From: a virus
Lineage: Duplodnaviria; Heunggongvirae; Uroviricota; Caudoviricetes
DNA: 64,000 nucleotides
Direction: 5' to 3' (one strand)
Virus record (IMG/VR): IMGVR_UViG_2681813233_000007
Every line of letters begins with the position of its first letter. Position 1 is the stretch's first letter. Shown piece after piece: positions 8,635 to 51,081 of this stretch. The notes below the pieces were generated by a model, which ran no database searches, was not told the origin of the DNA, and saw nothing but the letters and a program-made list of their open reading frames with translations. The translations under genes were made by a program, and so were the position numbers.

Positions 8635-8652
8635 AAGTTAAATTTCTAACAT
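8635..8652 (-). promoter_or_regulatory. Operator-like motif ATGTTAGAAATTTAACTT
   Basis: Member of the dispersed TGTTAGAAA motif family; upstream of the 8825 ORF. Confidence 0.45.
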
Positions 8653-8824: not shown

Positions 8825-9787
8825 GTGAGTATTTTAAATTCAGTTTCAGTAACTTTCAACACTTCTGAGTATAAAAACAACACTGAATACCACAAAAAAA
8901 TCAAAGGTCATCAGTTGAGTTTTTTTGCTCGTCATAGCGGTCTTCTTTCCCCTTCACATAGCGCCATTATTGCCGAGTTCGCCAACCTGGCAGGGTCTAC
9001 CGATGAATACATGATCCGTCGCTCATATGCTGATATGTCCGAGATTACAGGACGCAGCATTTCTACTGTGCGCCGGGCATTTGCTGAAGCGACGAAGTGC
9101 GGAATGCTTGTTAAGCAACATCAGGTAGCGAATAACAATGCCCAGGTGTGTAACGTATATCGGTTTACGACACAATTTCTCCACTTCATTCATGTAGCAA
9201 TGGAGATAGGGGGTAAGCAGGGCATCAAATTTGCCAACGCCACAAAGCTGGTTAAGCAATTGATTTCAAAGGTACGTTATTTTTTTGAAACTGGGACCCC
9301 CCTGTTCAAATTGAACAAGTCCCCCCATGTTCAATTTGAACAGCCAATAGAAAATAAGAGTCACTCTATAGCCAAAAGAAGAGAAAGATCATGCGCGGTT
9401 CAGCCAAAGGCTTCACCAGCAGATAGTTCTCAAGCGGATAATGGGGGACTGGATAAAAAAACAGTAATCAGGGAAGAACATACCAACCACTGCCTGGCGG
9501 CGGCAAAAGCGAGAGCTGCAAAGCGTCGTTCAGACGAGGGGCACGCAAAACGGCAGGCTCTGTATCGTACCGCTGAAAAGCTGGCAAAAAAATTTGCATG
9601 GATACGTAGTGCCGCTACCGCAGTGAATAAGCCTAAACAATCCAGTGCCCTGGATTTCTCAATGGATTATTCTGGCTCCCAGGGGTGTGCAACCATTGGT
9701 GAAGCCTTTGACCTGATGAAACAGCGTGGCTATCTGTCTGAATTTGACCGTGAGGATTGGTCAATCCCTGCGGGATTTAGGGGATGA
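8825..9787 (+). CDS. HTH DNA-binding protein, possible KilA/RepL-region homolog (lytic replicon candidate)
   Basis: 320 aa; HTH-like segment MSEITGRSISTVRRAFAEA; internal inverted palindrome pair at 9304-9343; GTG start uncertain. Confidence 0.35.
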   Translation: MSILNSVSVTFNTSEYKNNTEYHKKIKGHQLSFFARHSGLLSPSHSAIIAEFANLAGSTDEYMIRRSYADMSEITGRSISTVRRAFAEATKCGMLVKQHQVANNNAQVCNVYRFTTQFLHFIHVAMEIGGKQGIKFANATKLVKQLISKVRYFFETGTPLFKLNKSPHVQFEQPIENKSHSIAKRRERSCAVQPKASPADSSQADNGGLDKKTVIREEHTNHCLAAAKARAAKRRSDEGHAKRQALYRTAEKLAKKFAWIRSAATAVNKPKQSSALDFSMDYSGSQGCATIGEAFDLMKQRGYLSEFDREDWSIPAGFRG

Positions 9788-9840
9788 CCTGTGTGTCTAC
9801 AAAACATCCCAATGATCGGAAAATGCTCGCTCGATAATTT

Positions 9841-9858
9841 GTGTTAGAAAATTAATTT
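9841..9858 (+). promoter_or_regulatory. Operator-like motif GTGTTAGAAAATTAATTT with inverted partial partner at 9861-9873
   Basis: Motif family member upstream of the first icd-ant module. Confidence 0.5.
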
Positions 9859-10200
9859 GCTGTTTCTAAATCGGAATGTATGATCTGCATCATCGTCTGA
9901 AGTCATCCATTGCTGAAATTTTTAGTTGATCTTCCATGTTTTCAGGCTTATATTCATGCCGTCGTAGCAAATTCTGCGACCGGGTTTGACAGCCTGAATA
10001 CTTACGCGGACAACCGCACATTTCCGATATTGCGGTATTTTTGTGTCCGTAAAACCACGTTACGCCCGAATTATGGTGGGGCGTGATGGGGAGGCTTCGG
10101 CCTGCTGGTTTCGTAAGTGCCAGTCTGTCAACCCTGTCACGTCCTGCCACCTGTTTGACAGCGGGTCGCAGGTTGTTTATCAACTTACGAGGCCGTAACT

Positions 10201-10425
10201 ATGGTTAATGCCAATCCTTGCTCACGTCCAGAATTCATCTGGCGTTTCCACTCCCTGCAAAAACACTGCGATCACTTCGCAATTGCCGCAACCGAAAAAG
10301 AAGCCCGTTCTCTGATCCCTGATCAGTATGGTGTTCTTACTGGTCGTTTCTCTACTTCCCCACAACCAAACACTAATCCCTGGTATCGCAATATTACCAA
10401 TCCCGGAATTGCGGAGGCACACTGA
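10201..10425 (+). CDS. Icd-like small protein (copy 1)
   Basis: 74 aa, motif EFIWRF(H/Y)S.QKH shared with the paralog at 49445; directly upstream of the Ant-like gene as in P1 immI. Confidence 0.5.
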   Translation: MVNANPCSRPEFIWRFHSLQKHCDHFAIAATEKEARSLIPDQYGVLTGRFSTSPQPNTNPWYRNITNPGIAEAH

Positions 10426-11132
10426 TGGAAATCTGCATTCTTGAAAAGCCATCAATGACCAGCATTGAGATCGCGGAGCTGGTGGGAAGTCGCCCGGATA
10501 ACGTTAAACGCACTATTGAACGCTTGAGTAAATCAGGTGTTATTCCACTTCCTCCAATGGAGGTTTCCGAAAATATCAATAACTTAGGATTTAAAGTTAA
10601 AAATTCACACTACGTCTTCGAAGGCGAGCAAGGCAAGCGTGACAGTATCATTGTCGTTGCGCAGCTTTCTCCCGAATTCACCGCCCGGCTGGTGGACCGC
10701 TGGCGCGAACTGGAAGAACAAGTACGCCAGCCGTTGACCGAAATAGAGATGATCGCCGCAATGGCTGCAAATGCAGTTCAGCAGCAAAAGCGGCTTCATG
10801 TTGTTGAGTCAAAGGTTAGCCAGGTGGTAGAAACCGTCGAGCAAATCAAGAAGGGCAACATGCCGGAAGGCTACATTGGCTACCGCCAGCTGGCGGCGAA
10901 ATGTGGCCTGACTGAAGCCAAATGCCGAAACCTGGTCAACGCTTACCGGATTCCCACCGATACACATGAGTTTTTAACTCCAGAGGGGGTATTGTCGCGT
11001 CGTTCCATCGTGGCCTTATCTCCCTTCATGAATGCTTTTAACCGGATGATGTCGGAGGCTGAACACCGAGGAAAACGCTGGTATCACCCCAAAATGGGGC
11101 AATTCCAGGTGATCGGTTGGGGAGGTGAGTGA
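10425..11132 (+). CDS. Antirepressor-like protein (Ant/KilA-type), copy 1
   Basis: 235 aa; N-terminal MTSIEIAELVG..DNVKRTIE shared with the 313-aa paralog at 49660. Confidence 0.55.
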   Translation: MEICILEKPSMTSIEIAELVGSRPDNVKRTIERLSKSGVIPLPPMEVSENINNLGFKVKNSHYVFEGEQGKRDSIIVVAQLSPEFTARLVDRWRELEEQVRQPLTEIEMIAAMAANAVQQQKRLHVVESKVSQVVETVEQIKKGNMPEGYIGYRQLAAKCGLTEAKCRNLVNAYRIPTDTHEFLTPEGVLSRRSIVALSPFMNAFNRMMSEAEHRGKRWYHPKMGQFQVIGWGGE

Positions 11133-11329
11133 TGGACATCATGCAGGCGGTAAAAAAAATCAGGGAAGGACATGCTGAAGTGTGCCGCCGTAAAGCATGG
11201 AGTGTTGGTGTATGGGCCTGGCCTGATAATTACTCTACTACCGGATGGTTTTGTATTAATGGACTCCAGATCCGGGAAGTTGATTTATCGACGGCTGATA
11301 TAGTCGGTAATGATTGGATCGTGACTTGA
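11129..11329 (+). CDS. Small hypothetical protein
   Basis: 66 aa ORF overlapping the ant stop; weak. Confidence 0.25.
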   Translation: MMDIMQAVKKIREGHAEVCRRKAWSVGVWAWPDNYSTTGWFCINGLQIREVDLSTADIVGNDWIVT

Positions 11330-11337
11330 AGCGTGAT

Positions 11338-11362
11338 GCCCCGGCCTGGCCGGGGCTTTTTT
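11338..11362. terminator. Bidirectional terminator hairpin GCCCCGGCC-TGG-CCGGGGC plus T-run
   Basis: Perfect 9/7-bp GC stem with TTTTTT; nearly the same hairpin recurs after the second ant copy. Confidence 0.6.
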
Positions 11363-11847
11363 CATGCCTCATTAGTTGAGGTTGCTGCGTCTCCGACTGG
11401 TAACAGAGCGGTATTGCGTGGTTCGCCAGCAGGCCAGCGATAGCCAGACACTCTTGATGTTGGGAATGCGCGAATATTAACCGCATCCCCCTGGTTCCCA
11501 CCCAGGACAAGCAGATCGCCATTGGCGCGGCGTCCGACAACGAAGCCTACGTGCCCACCGCCTACGCGGGTAAATACAACGATACATCCGTATGCCGGTG
11601 TATCTAATTTCTCGCCCCAATCCAGATAGGATTTTGCCGACTCAAATCTTGTTGAGCGGATGCCTACACGTTCCAGCATTGCACCGACAAATGCTGCGCA
11701 CCACGGCGTTTCATCGTCTTTAATTCCGCCGCGCTTGATGTCGCGCCAGAACTGAACGATTTCAGGGTTGTGTTTAGCGCCTTTTATTTCAGTCAGGCCA
11801 ATGTGCTTACGGGCTTCAATTAGCCAGCGAGGTTCAATGTTTGCCAT
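11362..11847 (-). CDS. Cell-wall peptidase-like protein (NlpC/P60- or CHAP-like Cys/His hydrolase)
   Basis: 161 aa; conserved Cys (TPWCAAFV) and His (GGHVGFVVG) in the typical spacing. Confidence 0.5.
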   Translation of the reverse strand: MANIEPRWLIEARKHIGLTEIKGAKHNPEIVQFWRDIKRGGIKDDETPWCAAFVGAMLERVGIRSTRFESAKSYLDWGEKLDTPAYGCIVVFTRVGGGHVGFVVGRRANGDLLVLGGNQGDAVNIRAFPTSRVSGYRWPAGEPRNTALLPVGDAATSTNEA

Positions 11848-23265: not shown

Positions 23266-23342
23266 GATGGTGTAGCTCAGTAGGATAGAGCAGCAGCCTT
23301 CTAAGCTGTCGGTCGGTGGTTCGAATCCATCCACCATCGCCA
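23266..23342 (+). tRNA. tRNA-Arg (anticodon UCU)
   Basis: Cloverleaf by hand: acceptor GATGGTG/CACCATC, D-arm GCTC/GAGC, anticodon loop CTTCTAA, T-loop TTCGAAT, encoded CCA. Confidence 0.75.
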
Positions 23343-23344
23343 AT

Positions 23345-23417
23345 GCCGGTTTAGCTCAGTTGGTAGAGCGCCTGCCTTGTAAGCAGGATGTCAGCGGTTC
23401 GAGTCCGTTAACCGGCA
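23345..23417 (+). tRNA. tRNA-Thr (anticodon UGU)
   Basis: Acceptor GCCGGTT/AACCGGC, D-loop AGTTGGTA, anticodon loop CTTGTAA, T-loop TTCGAGT. Confidence 0.8.
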
Positions 23418-24582: not shown

Positions 24583-24658
24583 GGCCCTTTAGCTCAGTGG
24601 TTAGAGCAGGCGACTCATAATCGCACGGTCACCGGTTCAAATCCGGTAGGGGCCACCA
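24583..24658 (+). tRNA. tRNA-Ile2 type (anticodon CAU, lysidine-type AUA reader) or tRNA-Met
   Basis: Near-identical to the E. coli ileX-type sequence as I recall it; anticodon loop CTCATAA, encoded CCA. Confidence 0.8.
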
Positions 24659-29477: not shown

Positions 29478-30515
29478 TTACCAGAGCTTCGCGGCGTACT
29501 GCGTTTGGGGGAATGTGTATCCGTAACGTTCTTCGATTGCTTTGCCGTATTTTTTACGAGCTTCATTCAGTTTAATGCCGGTCAGGTCGTCTCCAGAGGC
29601 CATCATTACGTCTAACAATTCCAGATCCATTTTATCCAGCCTTGCCATTGCTTCACGTGATGTACGTATCTTACGTTCAATGATATGGCGAATAGCCGGA
29701 TCGGCATCCTCCAGCATCTTAGCGGATTTCTGCTTAAGGCTTTCATTGCGAATATCGATGTTCCTTAAGATGTACGACTTCGCAACGTAGCTTGGCTGGT
29801 GTTTTTCCAGGTCACGAACACGATATAAGTTAAAATCGCCGAGAAGGCTGCAAGGTACCGATTCGACGCCAGAATAAATTGTAATGCTCCGGCGTTCACC
29901 AACATTATTGACAACGGGGATCGTTGTCTTCGGTAGTCTTGCGAAAACCAATGCGCCATGTGCGCCAACTCTAAAGCGAGAAAGGGCATTGCTGCCTTCG
30001 ATGTTTGTTGTCAGCACAACATCTGTATATGCCTCTTTACGCGCCCGGTAGATCTCGCCTTCAGGCTCAGCTTCAAAGAAGCGCTGTTCTTCTTCAAGAG
30101 CACCTACGATTTGAGAAAAAACCCTATTTTTCAGGCTTTTCTTTATGATTTTGTCGTATTTTTTTAGCAATTGTTCACGTGTAAATGTACGTGTTGTTGT
30201 AGCGCTTTGCACAACGACATGCGTGCTTTGATTGGTGTCCTCAATGATGAATGGGATCGGAGAATATACAGACTCAACAATGTTCGACGCTTTGCCGTCG
30301 GCATCGCGGCACATGTCAACGAAGGCTTTCCATTCAGCAAGACATTTTTCAGCTTCTTCTAATATGTTTTGGTCATGCGTTAATGCAACATGGCGGAATT
30401 CCTCGCCAGCATAACTGGTATCATGGAAAACAGAGTTTGCGACCACCAGCTCTTTCCACCGTTCAGCGGTTTGCAGGAACCGTTTGTACTCTTTCTCGAT
30501 CGACTTCTTACTCAT
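29478..30515 (-). CDS. Putative primary repressor (C1-like, by position)
   Basis: 345 aa, convergent with pacB and next to the lox-type site as c1 is in P1; operator-like motif 12 bp upstream of its start. Confidence 0.4.
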   Translation of the reverse strand: MSKKSIEKEYKRFLQTAERWKELVVANSVFHDTSYAGEEFRHVALTHDQNILEEAEKCLAEWKAFVDMCRDADGKASNIVESVYSPIPFIIEDTNQSTHVVVQSATTTRTFTREQLLKKYDKIIKKSLKNRVFSQIVGALEEEQRFFEAEPEGEIYRARKEAYTDVVLTTNIEGSNALSRFRVGAHGALVFARLPKTTIPVVNNVGERRSITIYSGVESVPCSLLGDFNLYRVRDLEKHQPSYVAKSYILRNIDIRNESLKQKSAKMLEDADPAIRHIIERKIRTSREAMARLDKMDLELLDVMMASGDDLTGIKLNEARKKYGKAIEERYGYTFPQTQYAAKLW

Positions 30516-30526
30516 TATTCCTACTC

Positions 30527-30544
30527 GATTTAGTTTTCTAACAT
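30527..30544 (-). promoter_or_regulatory. Operator-like motif ATGTTAGAAAACTAAATC at the c1-like start
   Basis: Motif family member overlapping the presumed promoter/RBS of the c1-like gene, suggesting autoregulation. Confidence 0.5.
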
Positions 30545-33334: not shown

Positions 33335-34036
33335 ATGAATTACATGACAACGAAAGAGCTTTTTAAGTTCCTTCCCAAATACAAAGCTCACAAAAACGTT
33401 AGTGCATCGAAAATCAAAAATGTTGTTATTTTCGGAGTAACTGCTTCCCCACTTTGGGGCTGCATCGAACTCGTTGAACCAAAAGGGGCAACAGTTTGTG
33501 TTGACGCAATTTTTTTACAAAAACACCGACCAAAAACTGGCGGGTATCTGATCGTTTATGAAAACGGTTATCTGTTCTATGCCCCGGAGAAACCATTTGA
33601 GCAATGCTATGGCCTGGTTAACGACGCCTCCGAAAATGGGGTATCGCTCAGCATTGAAGGTCACAATGGGGTGACATTCATTACAGCCAGGGACGTAACT
33701 ATTTCTGCTGGCGGTATCGCTACTCTACAAGAAGAAATCGACCTTGAAGCAGCCGACTTTTCTGACGCGCTGATGTGGCTGAAGGATGGCAAGAAAGTTG
33801 CTCGACGCGGGTGGAACGGCGAAAACCAATTCTGCTGGCTGGTTCCTGACAAACAGGGTGCTTCAAGACTAACCCCTATAAAACATGCCGCAAACGGAGA
33901 GCTTGAAATCAATTTCGACTCTCCTCTTGCTCCTTATGGTGCGCATTTCGTTTTGAAAAATGCACAAGGTGTAGTTGTTCCATGGATGCCTTCTGTAGGT
34001 GACCTGCTGGCATGTGACTGGTTTGTAGTGGAGTGA
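33335..34036 (+). CDS. Two-domain protein with C-terminal DUF2829 (Tad2-like) domain
   Basis: C-terminal ~90 aa ALMWLKDGKKVARRGWNG...VPWMPSVGDLLACDWFVVE fits the DUF2829 pattern as I recall it; N-terminal ~140 aa unknown. Confidence 0.5.
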   Translation: MNYMTTKELFKFLPKYKAHKNVSASKIKNVVIFGVTASPLWGCIELVEPKGATVCVDAIFLQKHRPKTGGYLIVYENGYLFYAPEKPFEQCYGLVNDASENGVSLSIEGHNGVTFITARDVTISAGGIATLQEEIDLEAADFSDALMWLKDGKKVARRGWNGENQFCWLVPDKQGASRLTPIKHAANGELEINFDSPLAPYGAHFVLKNAQGVVVPWMPSVGDLLACDWFVVE

Positions 34037-48054: not shown

Positions 48055-48633
48055 ATGCAGAAACAGAGCTACTGGGAGAAACAGAGACAAAAAGCCATGC
48101 AAAGATTGGCTGACCCGGCCTGGCGAGAGGAACAAAGGGCAAAGCGCCTTCAACAAGCTCAACGCCAGCAGCAGCGAGCGAGAGAAAAAGCCGCATCGCC
48201 TGAATATCGGCAAAAGAGAATTGAAAAAGCAAAGCAATATGACCAGCGGAGAAAAGAGAAAGCTGTATCCGCTCCGTCCAAAAAAACACGCACGTCACGC
48301 GGCCTGAAGGGCAGATCACTCACAGCCGATGAACGCCGGATACAGACCGCTATCGGTACTCTCCCCTGCATTGCCTGCCATATTCACGGGCAACATAGCC
48401 CAGTGGTATCCCTGCACCATATCTTCGGGAGAACGGCAGAGAACGCGCATAAATATGTCCTCCCTTTGTGTAAATGGCACCACCAGTACGCAGCGCCAGC
48501 CGAGGTCCGAGAACAATATCCCTGGCTGGTCCCTGTTCATGCTGATGGAAAAATAGGCGGAAAAGCAGATTTCATACGGCACAATGCCGATGAAATGGCG
48601 TTGTATCAGATGGCAATTGAATTGATAAATTAG
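48055..48633 (+). CDS. ref: Ref recombination enhancement function (HNH endonuclease)
   Basis: 192 aa; C-terminal half near-identical to P1 Ref as I recall it (LPCIAC..H...VSLHHI.GRTA...PLC.WHHQ.AAPAEVRE.YPWLVPVHADG). Confidence 0.85.
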   Translation: MQKQSYWEKQRQKAMQRLADPAWREEQRAKRLQQAQRQQQRAREKAASPEYRQKRIEKAKQYDQRRKEKAVSAPSKKTRTSRGLKGRSLTADERRIQTAIGTLPCIACHIHGQHSPVVSLHHIFGRTAENAHKYVLPLCKWHHQYAAPAEVREQYPWLVPVHADGKIGGKADFIRHNADEMALYQMAIELIN

Positions 48634-48644
48634 TTTTCTAACAT
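48627..48644 (-). promoter_or_regulatory. Operator-like motif ATGTTAGAAAACTAATTT
   Basis: Identical 18-mer to 20784-20801; downstream of ref, upstream of the second icd-ant leader. Confidence 0.5.
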
Positions 48645-48965
48645 TTTAAGTTGAATTGGAAATTTCTCCGATGTACATTCACTACCGATTGGCACACCGG
48701 TCAACTTTTTGAGACAAACTGTTTAGTTTTTCGTATTATTGCCGCCGCCATACCTATGGCGGTGCAATATAGGTGGCTGAAAAGCCCCCGTTGACTCACG
48801 GTGTTCCAGCCTTTATTGCGCCGCCACCAGACCGTGGAACAGTCGATGGCGGCTCCGAAAGCAAGGAGTCACTACACTATGAACAACTACAGTCTTTTCC
48901 CATCACTCGTCGTCCACCACTCACGCGATAATCTGCATTCTTTACTCGCGCTGGGGGTGTCAAAA

Positions 48966-49133
48966 TGACTGTTCGCTACCTCAACTTTCAAATCAAGAAC
49001 ATTACTGGCGGTTGCTATGACTGGTTTGTCACTCTCGGAAAAGAAGTGATCACCGGGAAGCTGGATGAAGTGAAAGCTAAAGCAATGGCCTACGCCTGCA
49101 AGCAAGCCCGGAAAAAATCCGCCAAAGCATAAA
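48966..49133 (+). CDS. Small basic protein (55 aa, hypothetical)
   Basis: ATG with upstream GGGGGTG; below the ORF-track cutoff; 100 bp upstream of a terminator. Confidence 0.3.
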
Positions 49134-49237
49134 ATACTGACTGTTGCGCCCTGGCATTATCGTGGGGTATATTTCTACGGCACCTTAGAAAAACGGGTGC
49201 CGGGATTGGAACCCCGGATAATGTCAAAGGCGACACA

Positions 49238-49259
49238 GACGCCGAAAGCGTCTTTTTTT
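49238..49259 (+). terminator. Rho-independent terminator
   Basis: GACGC-cgaaa-GCGTC followed by TTTTTTT. Confidence 0.7.
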
Positions 49260-49444
49260 GTGTCATGCCATCGCACAGCCATACGTAGCGTTTAGCTCAG
49301 AGATCAATGGTAGTGCTGGCTGGGCTGCCGAAAGGCAGGCCGGTTCCCTTTGACGCCGGTAGTTCCAACCCAGTCAGTGCTACCGCCATTGAGATTGGAA
49401 CCTCACGCGGTAGCTCCTTAACTTAGTCAAAGGAGGCTGCCAAT

Positions 49445-49660
49445 ATGGCTACTATCCCCACCCCAACTCATTCTGAATTTATCTGGCGTTTCTATTCCTG
49501 CCAAAAACACCTCTATATCTGCGTCATGGCTGCTACCGAAGCAGAAGCGCGCTCATGCATTCCCGAAGAACCCTGCATTTTTGCTGCTCGCTTCACTCTT
49601 GATGCGATGGAGATCCTCAATTACTGGAATCTGCCGATGAACTGCGTGGAGGTGCACTGA
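49445..49660 (+). CDS. Icd-like small protein (copy 2)
   Basis: 71 aa; EFIWRFYSCQKH motif; paralog of 10201..10425. Confidence 0.5.
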   Translation: MATIPTPTHSEFIWRFYSCQKHLYICVMAATEAEARSCIPEEPCIFAARFTLDAMEILNYWNLPMNCVEVH

Positions 49661-50601
49661 TGAATCTGTCCATCTCTCAAAAAGCGACAATGACCAGTAT
49701 TGAGATCGCGGAACTGGTAGGTAAGCGTCATGATAATGTGAAGCGTACCATTGAAGTATTAACTAAAGGTGGTGTCATTCAATTTCCTCAAATTGAGGAA
49801 ATTGAAAATAAACAATCAGTTGGCCCTCGTCGATTTTCCAAGGCTTACATCTTTGAAGGCGAACAAGGCAAGCGTGACAGTATCATTGTCGTCGCACAGC
49901 TTTCTCCCGAATTTACCGCCCGGCTGGTGGACCGCTGGCGCGAACTGGAGAATGCCCGGGTACAGTTAAAATCAAAAGCCGAAATCCTAGCTGAAATGGC
50001 GCAAATGCATCTTGAGCATGAACGCCGGATCAACGCCGTTAATGCCCAGGTAGCCGAAGTATCGGCACAAGTGTCCAAAGTCGCTGAAACCGTCGAGCAA
50101 ATCAAGAAAGGCAATATGCCGGAAGGCTACATTGGCTACCGCCAGCTGGCGGCGAAATGCGGCCTGACTGAAGCCAAATGTCGCAACCTTGTCAACGCTT
50201 ACCGGATTCCCACCGATACACATGAGTTTTTGACCCCCGATGGCTTGCTTGCGCGACGCTCCATTGTGGCCCTGGCCCCCTTCCGGAAAGCCTTTAAGCA
50301 GGTGATGTCGGAGGCAGAACCACGCAATAAACGCTGGTATCATCCAAAGATGGGGATGTTTCAGGCAATCCACCATCCTGTGCCTGAAAGTCCAAAGGCA
50401 AACCTGTCGTTGCATACCGCCAGAGAGAGGATTAAAACAGGGTATGCAATCGTATGCCGTCGAGCATCTTGGCCTGAAGGTGTATGGGTATGGCCCGAAG
50501 GTGGATCACGAAAGCACTGGCGCACTATCCGGGATGGGAAAATCCATGCGATTGATTTAGCTCCAGAGGATGTTGTTGCTACGGACTGGATTGTTAGTTA
50601 A
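49660..50601 (+). CDS. Antirepressor-like protein (Ant/KilA-type), copy 2
   Basis: 313 aa; N-terminal and central blocks shared with copy 1, including near-identical nucleotide stretches. Confidence 0.55.
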   Translation: MNLSISQKATMTSIEIAELVGKRHDNVKRTIEVLTKGGVIQFPQIEEIENKQSVGPRRFSKAYIFEGEQGKRDSIIVVAQLSPEFTARLVDRWRELENARVQLKSKAEILAEMAQMHLEHERRINAVNAQVAEVSAQVSKVAETVEQIKKGNMPEGYIGYRQLAAKCGLTEAKCRNLVNAYRIPTDTHEFLTPDGLLARRSIVALAPFRKAFKQVMSEAEPRNKRWYHPKMGMFQAIHHPVPESPKANLSLHTARERIKTGYAIVCRRASWPEGVWVWPEGGSRKHWRTIRDGKIHAIDLAPEDVVATDWIVS

Positions 50602-50609
50602 TTACTGTT

Positions 50610-50628
50610 GCCCCGGCCTGTCCGGGGC
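50610..50628 (+). terminator. Hairpin GCCCCGGCC-TGT-CCGGGGC (terminator-like)
   Basis: Same stem as the hairpin after ant copy 1; weaker T-run. Confidence 0.45.
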
Positions 50629-51081
50629 TTTAACTACTAAATAACCGGATTCTCCGCACGATGAAGAAAATAGATTTCACTTACTCTGCTGCCACAATCC
50701 AGCGACGTTTCAGTCTCATAAGGGAAGTGGAACTATCAAAAAACTGGTATCAAATTCTACTGGATGAAGAGTTTTCACTGATGGTTATAGCATAAAAATT
50801 GGCTATGCCGAATGACCGGCACAAGGTCATAGCCAGCCTGGATCTGGTGACAAACAGATACTGGGAATCCGAGGAACTACTTGAAGTTGGCTTGATACGC
50901 GAGATGATAGAACAGGCTGTTCCCCTCCACTTACAGCAACCATAATTGAAAGGTCTTAACGATAGTCTGCCACGAATAGTTACTTTCACTGCCTAAAGTT
51001 ATTTAATTGCATTACAAAGTGTAAATTAGTAACATTAGAATCTCACACAGCACTATAACTATATGTTTTTTATGTAAAAGG

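Follow-up and report, generated by a model that had tools for sequence, protein, structure and literature searches.

How does a single phage-plasmid come to hold two immI-type immunity modules whose effector genes are diverged over most of their length and nearly alike in two short stretches, and do such modules provide one immunity input or two? The question is raised by a 64,000-nt stretch of DNA (IMG/VR virus record IMGVR_UViG_2681813233_000007; referred to throughout as the window), in which a first-pass annotation, made from the letters alone, marked two modules about 39 kb apart, each encoding an Icd-like and an Ant-like protein. We think it probable that these are two immI-type modules of different c4 lineages, that their antisense locks are orthogonal, and that two patches within their effector genes are homogenised by gene conversion.

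The window belongs to a D6-like phage-plasmid of the P1 family. Megablast placed both module regions in Escherichia phage D6 with the same gene order, at 99.1% identity for module 1 (9700-11500) and 92.9% for module 2 (48900-50800). Both modules were found on the plus strand at the positions first given, about 39 kb apart and with icd-like open reading frames (ORFs) of 74 and 71 aa. They share one order of parts: promoter, leader with sites a1 and b1, C4 RNA, sites a2 and b2 over the icd ribosome-binding site, icd, a Rha-family gene, a Tad2-fold domain and a GC-rich hairpin. The coding parts and hairpins are as follows.

10201-10425, plus strand: icd-like gene 1, 74 aa; NCBIfam phage_ICD_like (NF033153) at 40 bits (cut-off 25); phrog_1426; 57% identity to P1 Icd.
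10425-11132, plus strand: Rha-family 'ant' gene 1 (ant1), 235 aa; Pfam HTH_24; phrog_63 at 2e-47.
11132-11329, plus strand: 65-aa ORF with a predicted Tad2 fold; phrog_7385; its start overlaps the ant1 stop (TGATG).
11338-11362, plus strand: terminator hairpin of module 1, GCCCCGGCC-TGG-CCGGGGC followed by T6; called by the terminator scan.
49445-49660, plus strand: icd-like gene 2, 71 aa; NCBIfam phage_ICD_like at 47.2 bits (cut-off 25); 54% identity to P1 Icd.
49660-50601, plus strand: Rha-family 'ant' gene 2 (ant2), 313 aa, with a Tad2-like C-terminal fusion (about aa 250-313); phrog_63 and phrog_7385.
50610-50628, plus strand: hairpin of module 2, GCCCCGGCC-TGT-CCGGGGC followed by TTT only; not called by the terminator scan.

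The stop codon of icd overlaps the effector start as TGATG in both modules (10423-10427 and 49658-49662), and by likeness to P1 the downstream genes would be translationally coupled to icd. The 65-aa ORF is a part of module 1 absent from the first-pass annotation. The hairpin had been described as the same terminator in both modules. Its stem is indeed common to the two module ends (GCCCCGGCCTGGCCGGGGC at 11338-11356, GCCCCGGCCTGTCCGGGGC at 50610-50628) and occurs nowhere else in the window (2 copies against 0.02 expected), but only the module 1 copy has the T-run and scans as a terminator.

A self-comparison of the window by BLASTn, which the first-pass annotation had suggested, found two repeats only: 10830-11099 against 50086-50355 (85.7%) and 10413-10718 against 49648-49952 (77.6%). 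Within them lie two patches.

10618-10714, plus strand: patch A, module 1 copy; encodes FEGEQGKRDSIIVVAQLSPEFTARLVDRWRELE; Chi site at 10688-10695.
49853-49949, plus strand: patch A, module 2 copy; Chi site at 49923-49930.
10830-10976, plus strand: patch B, module 1 copy; encodes ETVEQIKKGNMPEGYIGYRQLAAKCGLTEAKCRNLVNAYRIPTDTHEFL.
50086-50232, plus strand: patch B, module 2 copy; differs from the module 1 copy at 7 of 147 nt.

These are discrete DNA patches, as had been claimed, slightly larger than the 10626-10712 and 10860-10980 first outlined, and about 95% identical rather than near-identical (in patch A 5 of 97 nt differ). The longest exact runs between the copies are 44, 41, 35 and 29 bp. 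Within the window, patches A and B have synonymous divergences (dS) of 0.31 and 0.28, against 2.3 in the MTSIEIAELVG block, 1.35 after patch B and 1.31 in icd, a contrast that speaks against uniform protein-level conservation. Among codons for identical residues, synonymous changes affected 14 of 81 inside the patches and 36 of 70 outside (Fisher p = 1e-5, for patches defined post hoc).

The pattern extended beyond the window. In a comparative sample of 13 D6-like genomes, used for all allele and polymorphism counts given here, the patches carried no fixed difference between the paralogues, and 9 (patch A) and 11 (patch B) polymorphisms were shared by the two loci. The flanks carried 77 fixed differences and 1 shared polymorphism in the linker, 27 and 1 in antC (after patch B), and 87 and 0 in icd. 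The mean between-locus distance in the patches (7.6 and 9.7) was close to the within-locus distance (4.2-8.4), and the edges were abrupt. Patch A of D6 module 2 lies 2 nt from the module 1 allele of another plasmid and 8 nt from the module 1 copy of D6 itself.

One natural hybrid, plasmid ptetA (NZ_CP047013.1), was found with an artificial junction query that joined module 2 on the left to module 1 on the right. Its module 1 gene is of module 1 type at 275 diagnostic sites, of module 2 type at 77 of 77 linker sites, and again of module 1 type at 179 sites. The module 2 linker brings a 7-codon insertion, giving a protein of 242 aa, and the rest is identical to CP058619/CP035876. Each patch holds one end of the tract, so the patches appear to act as homology arms that can carry a heterologous linker.

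Patch-limited gene conversion between the copies is thus well supported by the dS contrast, the lack of fixed differences, the shared polymorphisms and the hybrid with its ends in the patches. The conversion proposed earlier therefore holds, while the word 'recent' overstated it, given the difference of about 5% here. The patches offer a clean natural example of how short homology islands keep diverged paralogues in genetic contact and move a heterologous segment between loci. P1 is known to be rich in Chi, and the window has 43 Chi sites (GCTGGTGG) in 64 kb against 1.65 expected from shuffles; one lies inside patch A of each module, and a further copy is found, for example, at 10478-10485.

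The second part of the question concerns the regulation of the modules. Each carries a set of antisense RNA parts upstream of icd.

9948-10007, plus strand: module 1 leader (c4-a1b1); Rfam RF03163 at 9948-10000, 55.9 bits (gathering score 46.7); a1 TTGACAG at 9986-9992 and b1 ACTTACGC at 10000-10007, placed by alignment to the annotated P1 a1/b1.
10069-10154, plus strand: module 1 C4 antisense RNA; Rfam RF01695, 69.6 bits (gathering score 45); loops b' UCGUAAGU at 10111-10118 and a' CUGUCAA at 10125-10131.
10155-10192, plus strand: module 1 targets; a2 TTGACAG at 10155-10161 and b2 ACTTACGA at 10183-10190; overlap the icd Shine-Dalgarno sequence GAGG.
49180-49258, plus strand: module 2 isrK-type leader RNA; Rfam isrK RF01394, 62.7 bits (gathering score 50); a1 TTGGAAC at 49206-49212 and b1 GTCAAAGG at 49223-49230; its end is an intrinsic terminator at 49237-49253 plus T7 (terminator scan).
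49303-49390, plus strand: module 2 C4 antisense RNA; Rfam C4 RF01695, 77.1 bits (gathering score 45); loops b' CCUUUGAC at 49347-49354 and a' GUUCCAA at 49362-49368.
49395-49436, plus strand: module 2 targets; a2 TTGGAAC at 49395-49401 and b2 GTCAAAGG at 49426-49433; overlap the icd Shine-Dalgarno sequence AGGAGG.

Within each module the loops and targets are perfect complements of 7-8 nt. In module 1, b' (UCGUAAGU) pairs with b1 (ACUUACGC) and b2 (ACUUACGA), and a' (CUGUCAA) with the UUGACAG of a1 and a2. In module 2, b' (CCUUUGAC) pairs with the GUCAAAGG of b1 and b2, and a' (GUUCCAA) with the UUGGAAC of a1 and a2. Across modules the c4 loops and targets are non-complementary. Predicted duplex energies were -26 to -31 kcal/mol for cognate pairs and -14 to -17 kcal/mol for non-cognate pairs, which makes the cognate duplexes 10-15 kcal/mol more stable. 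The two locks should therefore be orthogonal and provide independent immunity inputs, and at sequence level the earlier suggestion of two such inputs is borne out.

Comparison among relatives points the same way. The c4 gene of module 1 is about 89-91% identical to P1 c4, and its a set is of the P1 type; its b set, including the b' loop, is unlike those of both P1 (CACUAAC/GUUAGUG) and P7 (CACAAUC/GAUUGUG). In P1, P7, RCS47 and the D6-like genomes, a1/a'/a2 and b1/b'/b2 always co-vary, with at least three alleles per locus. Three specificity types were seen at module 1, namely that of the window, one with a b set identical to P1, and one with a P7-like a set and another b set. Module 2 also has three types, in which the loop and both targets always shift as one; its a and b triplets change in concert in five further plasmids as well as in D6 and RCS47. 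That a loop and both its targets co-vary in this way is good evidence, from comparison, that the two sets function as antisense locks and that diversifying pressure acts on their specificity. Since the a1/b1 sites for the module 2 c4 fall within the isrK match, isrK seems to be the counterpart of the c4-a1b1 leader (9948-10007).

If the locks are independent, a D6-like prophage has two separate inputs for superinfection and induction, and its immunity type is combinatorial, with at least three by three c4 alleles in only 13 genomes. The dual locks would then bear on mutual exclusion and induction among widespread, sometimes resistance-carrying phage-plasmids. We also noted that PGAP calls, in related plasmids, a 39-aa 'ash family protein' ORF atop the C4 RNA gene (window 49307-49426, plus strand). 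It had no NCBIfam match here, and may be a translated RNA gene rather than a real protein.

The two modules are old and belong to separate c4 lineages. Identity between them is about 45-55% in the c4, icd, linker and Tad2 parts, where dS is saturated. The c4-icd part of module 1 groups with P1/P7 immI (86-91%), and the isrK-c4 part of module 2 groups with isrK and with the second module of RCS47 and JL22 (87-89%). On this sequence comparison the modules represent distinct c4 lineages and no recent duplication, and the idea of one duplicated and diverged system does not hold. The contrast drawn earlier with the single immI of P1 is right for P1, but its relatives RCS47 and JL22 also hold a second c4 module. 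In the RCS47 version the gene that is driven is an unrelated one of ORF6N-KilAC type. Leader, c4 and icd thus behave as a portable unit, a regulatory front end that can stand before different effectors.

The effector genes had been called Ant-like. The ant2 protein matched Pfam Phage_pRha (PF09669) at 37.6 bits against a gathering score of 29.9; the clear paralogue ant1 scored 26.4 bits, just below it, and PGAP names the orthologues 'Rha family transcriptional regulator'. The ant proteins showed no detectable similarity to P1 Ant1 (BLASTP E = 0.25) or to KilA (E = 0.5), and none to RCS47 Ant. The Pfam ANT domain (PF03374) is present in P1 Ant1, KilA and RCS47 Ant, and not in the window proteins. 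It is the position of the genes that suggests an antirepressor function.

The winged-helix segment of these proteins (about aa 25-65; window 10480-10617 and 49715-49852) is hypervariable. Orthologues differ at 40-87 of 193 nt, and at least four alleles at module 1 and at least five at module 2 occur in nearly free combination, with 48 polymorphisms common to both loci. An entropy profile over 117 cluster representatives peaked at aa 31-60. The c1-like repressor gene was located by tblastn with the annotated 'phage repressor protein' of CP057047.

29481-30515, minus strand: c1-like repressor gene, 345 aa, inside the 39-kb interval; an operator-like motif precedes it at 30530-30543.

Its protein is 97-100% identical in six genomes. 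Co-variation of the winged-helix segment with C1 was tested and, with C1 this constant, rejected.

The 65-aa ORF of module 1 is homologous to the C-terminus of the 313-aa protein (40% identity; phrog_7385). Against Pfam Tad2-like (PF11195/DUF2829) it scored 16.1 bits, with a cut-off of 25, and all five family members tested matched at E <=1, the best at 3.6e-9. Its AlphaFold2 model has a pLDDT of 93.5, and in a Foldseek search of the PDB the top 11 matches were all Tad2 (probability 1.00, TM 0.74-0.77), with the next at TM <=0.38. A Tad2 fold is thus supported by the model. The family is tiny: an exhaustive profile search of 1.84 billion representatives gave 7 matches, and a word-indexed homologue search 3 proteins only. 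Sequence searches of the PDB with the 65-aa ORF and ant2 gave no useful match. That both locks are followed by a Tad2-fold domain gives a lead towards a possible anti-defence function among P1-family phages. Three Tad2/DUF2829-type domains were seen in the element, at 11132-11329, at 50404-50598 and at the C-terminus of a 233-aa protein (33335-34036) that adjoins dut and whose orthologues are annotated 'DUF2829 domain-containing protein'.

The module 2 effector seems dispensable in nature, as ptetA and CP088384 indicate. In ptetA, a 1.34-kb deletion (window 49600-50942) removed the end of icd2, all of ant2 and a pmgF-like gene, and kept isrK and c4. The ant2 ORF was intact in 11 of the 12 module 2 copies examined (D6 apart) and frameshifted only in CP088384 (212 aa). 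The 'pseudogene' or 'partial, missing C-terminus' status given to ant2 by RefSeq/PGAP was rejected, the ORF being mostly intact; it seems an annotation effect of the C-terminal fusion.

Upstream control was examined through promoter-like and operator-like sites.

9842-9855, plus strand: operator-like motif TGTTAGAAAATTAA before module 1; aligns with P1 operator Oc4; candidate operator of the D6-type C1.
9926-9954, plus strand: module 1 promoter-like site TTGATC-17-TATATT, from the promoter scan; aligns with the annotated P1 promoter (counterpart of P1c4/P51b).
48630-48643, minus strand: operator-like motif nearest module 2, an exact match to TGTTAGAAAACTAA; about 500 bp upstream of the module 2 promoter, just after ref.
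49144-49173, plus strand: putative module 2 promoter-like site TTGCGC-18-TATATT, read from the sequence and not called by the consensus scan.

The predicted module 2 start, near 49180, is the first base of the isrK match, and the promoter site is conserved in RCS47. Against an expectation of 0.08, the window holds 14 copies of the 14-nt motif TGTTAGAAAAYTAA (positions 8638, 9842, 19742, 20785, 22034, 22190, 26097, 30530, 31940, 43498, 47977, 48630, 52402 and 60268). Copies precede repL, module 1 and the c1-like gene, and flank ref on either side. Its position before repL and the c1-like gene and around ref makes the motif a probable operator of the D6-type C1 repressor. No match to the P1 C1 operator consensus was found in the window with up to 3 mismatches allowed, and P1-type operator control of the modules was rejected. 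An operator-like motif had been reported before each module; that before module 1 is there, but module 2 has only the distant minus-strand copy.

Taken together, we propose the following scheme. Each module would be one transcription unit whose promoter drives a leader with decoy sites a1 and b1. The C4 antisense RNA would be cut from the same transcript, and its a' and b' loops would pair with a2 and b2. With b2 covering the icd ribosome-binding site, the block on icd translation would also silence the coupled downstream genes, which encode a winged-helix protein of the Rha family and the Tad2-fold domain, the latter as an ORF of its own in module 1 and as a fusion in module 2. Each c4 would recognise its own targets only, giving orthogonal locks with several specificity alleles each in the D6-like population. 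Patches A and B would serve as Chi-containing homology islands that ectopic homologous recombination keeps homogenised. Conversion could occur within one plasmid or between co-resident D6-like plasmids, and could move the segment between the patches across loci. The scheme is built on what was observed here, namely the RNA and protein family assignments, the loop-target complementarity and covariation, the dS contrast, the polymorphism pattern and the natural hybrid. Beyond it, we infer that the Rha-type proteins might antagonise C1, that Icd might block division, and that the Tad2-fold domain might bind a defence signal.

Several points weigh against this reading. For the window pair alone, a run-length permutation test was not significant (p = 0.2). 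The patches differ by 5-14 nt in every genome sampled and are identical in none, so that no very recent intragenomic event was caught. Some of the shared polymorphisms could be recurrent synonymous mutations, for which a rough expectation is 2-3 per patch, compared with the 9 and 11 observed. The ptetA hybrid is one assembly of unknown read type and an assembly artefact is possible; with its ant2 deleted, a donor is not visible in the same molecule. As judged from their sequences, the genes called Ant-like belong to the Rha family and are no homologues of P1 Ant1 or Ant2. A nearly invariant C1 facing a hypervariable winged helix fits poorly with an Ant protein that binds its own C1. An exact-motif search of the window found no operator copy at the promoter of module 2. 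Finally, c4 action, translational coupling and antirepressor activity are proposed by analogy with P1 immI.

A different function is also conceivable, though we consider it unlikely. The modules might be c4-gated, immediately expressed cassettes for counter-defence or host takeover, and not antirepressors in the P1 sense. They would combine a Tad2-fold domain, similar to a sponge for the Thoeris signal, with a Rha-type protein whose winged helix is diversified by allele shuffling between loci and plasmids, the patches serving as recombination arms. If so, the element would hold a two-locus cassette-exchange system that generates regulator diversity while C1 stays invariant.

The remaining alternatives concern the patches. 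It is quite improbable that both genes have repeatedly exchanged DNA with a third and wider set of Rha-type genes carried by other prophages, and not with each other. Megablast with ant2 gave 198 matches in 5,426 complete E. coli genomes, all 198 on plasmids and none chromosomal, which suggests that the exchanging pool is the D6-like plasmids themselves. Among 50,697 phage records, only D6 matched the ant genes at megablast level, the others matching in the c4/icd part only, and the ptetA tract lies 1 nt from module 2 alleles of D6-like plasmids. These results outweigh the mosaicism for which phage regulatory genes are notorious, the many winged-helix alleles beside patch A, and the 72% match of lambdoid phage mEp044 from antN to patch A.

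A cis-acting role is very unlikely; here the patches would be conserved because they contain an internal promoter, an RNA structure or a site to which the Rha-type protein binds. Rha/Roi-type proteins are DNA-binding, the patch boundaries are very sharp and both copies of patch A hold a Chi site. However, polymorphism in the patches is not reduced, with up to 8-15 differences between orthologues, mostly synonymous, and the variable sites are common to both loci. With 43 Chi sites across the window, their presence in the patches needs no special cause.

Strong purifying selection on the protein, with no exchange of DNA, has hardly any chance of being correct. Such selection could explain why both patches are 100% identical at the protein level and are the least variable parts of the protein among the 117 representatives. 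Yet the equally conserved MTSIEIAELVG..DNVKRTIE block has the dS of 2.3 given above, compared with about 0.3 in the patches, and variation among orthologues is as high in the patches as in the flanks or higher. Purifying selection also leaves unexplained the absence of fixed paralogue differences beside 20 shared polymorphisms, and the hybrid with its tract ends inside the patches. On our reading, the dS contrast and the polymorphism pattern already refute it. Least credible of all is a recent tandem-type duplication of one immI region with the patches as its last undiverged remnants, which would suit the common gene order, stop/start overlaps and terminal hairpin but on our reading is already refuted by the differing outside relatives of the two c4 parts (P1/P7 and RCS47/JL22), and which agrees neither with the low identity and saturated dS of the c4, icd, linker and Tad2 parts nor with patches lacking the fixed differences that remnants would carry.

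Deletion of the 39 kb between the direct repeats had been predicted. Exact runs of 29-44 bp are generally considered enough for RecA-dependent recombination, and the deletion is mechanistically possible. However, a junction of module 1 on the left, patch B and module 2 on the right had no full-length match in 72,556 PLSDB plasmids, and thus no product was found. The 59.5-kb single-ant plasmid NZ_JBSWAN010000004.1 was rejected as a deletion product, since it has normal module 2 neighbours. The interval holds the c1-like repressor gene, pacA/B, lpa, a cre-like recombinase gene, phd/doc, darB and tRNA genes, three of the last being seen at 23266-23339, 23345-23417 and 24583-24655. About 18% of the matching E. 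coli plasmids carry only one of the two ant genes, via other events.

Both modules are widespread. In PLSDB the full module 1 was found on 110 plasmids and the full module 2 on 92, with about 100 holding both, and the carriers are nearly all non-mobilizable plasmids of about 90 kb from E. coli or Salmonella. Three D6-like plasmids (NZ_CP172188.1, NZ_CP074704.1 and NZ_CP021720.1) had 3-5 separate ant2 matches, maybe extra copies or cointegrates.

The closest known system is phage D6 itself (NC_050154), with orf19-orf18-orf17 as the counterpart of module 1 and orf83-orf82 as that of module 2. The neighbours also match, with repL before module 1, and ref before and pmgF after module 2. The window is a separate isolate, whose module 2 differs from that of D6 in its winged-helix allele and in its a' allele. 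The D6 GenBank record labels icd and 'anti-repressor' at both sites (orf19/18 and orf83/82); the dual modules are already annotated in D6 and published, and the module pair has been noted for the D6-like plasmid prophage pYU39_89. The D6 GenBank annotation and PMC6799933, a comparison that did not cover the D6 genome paper (Gilcrease and Casjens 2018), are silent on four features: D6's own RNA parts, the Tad2 fold of orf17, the hypervariable segment and the patches of conversion. What appear to be undescribed are the orthogonal c4 allele series at both loci, the Rha-type effector with its hypervariable winged-helix segment, the Tad2-fold domains behind both locks, and the patch-limited conversion. 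None of these results overturns current understanding.

Module 2 can be compared with the Gifsy-1 isrK-orf45-anrP locus of Salmonella. For that locus PMC4825925 describes a short leader RNA, ended by a terminator, that activates in trans an anti-repressor-like gene under translational coupling; isrK is also complementary to a processed RNA downstream. The module 2 leader is likewise an isrK match with a terminator that has to be read through before the effector, as that paper describes for Gifsy-1; unlike Gifsy-1, an Icd-like ORF stands between the RNA and the effector. By analogy, the short module 2 leader may act as a trans-acting anti-antisense decoy for its c4, and the Gifsy-1 orf45/STnc1160 RNA is probably c4-like. 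In the searched text of PMC4825925, 'phage P1' does not occur, and the passages retrieved draw no link between orf45 and c4.

The effectors resemble two other systems in part. The fold match of the 65-aa ORF is to Thoeris anti-defence 2 (Tad2) of SPO1 and of a Myroides phage (8SMF and 8V3E), the only confident matches in the PDB, whereas the sequence identity is 12-17%. The N-terminal winged helix matches Phage_pRha, and the D6 annotators noted a similarity to HK97 Roi; unlike Rha and Roi, the C-terminal half (phrog_6610), which holds patch B, has no Pfam family. To our knowledge, neither the placement behind c4-icd nor the Tad2-like fusion is a feature of Rha or Roi.

The second c4 module of RCS47 and JL22 lies between pacB and c1, and its isrK-type leader, c4 and icd start are 87-89% identical to module 2. 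In RCS47 the b' loop is the same as that of module 2, and a different a' is matched by RCS47's own a1/a2. Unlike in module 2, the effector there is a 371-aa 'ant' of ORF6N-KilAC type that has no relation to the Rha-type gene, and the module occupies another genomic position. The RNA parts of this isrK-c4-icd module (NC_042128, 3001-4600) are unannotated in the record.

The immI systems of P1 and P7 differ from the window in several ways. Their effectors are the KilAC/ANT-domain antirepressors Ant1/Ant2, the second made from an internal start, rather than Rha-family proteins, to which the window adds the Tad2-fold domain. The window has two modules per genome and a different operator sequence, and its repL stands upstream of module 1 and not, as in P1, downstream of ant. 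The likenesses are extensive. P1/P7 immI and the window share the C4 RNA, the a1/b1 and a2/b2 sites, b2 over the icd ribosome-binding site, the Icd homologue and the stop/start overlap. Module 1 has its operator-like site at the position of Oc4, is collinear with P1 and P7 from promoter P51b to the icd start, and is 86-91% identical from the promoter to mid-icd. In both systems, new specificities arise through co-variation of loop and target, as between P1 and P7.

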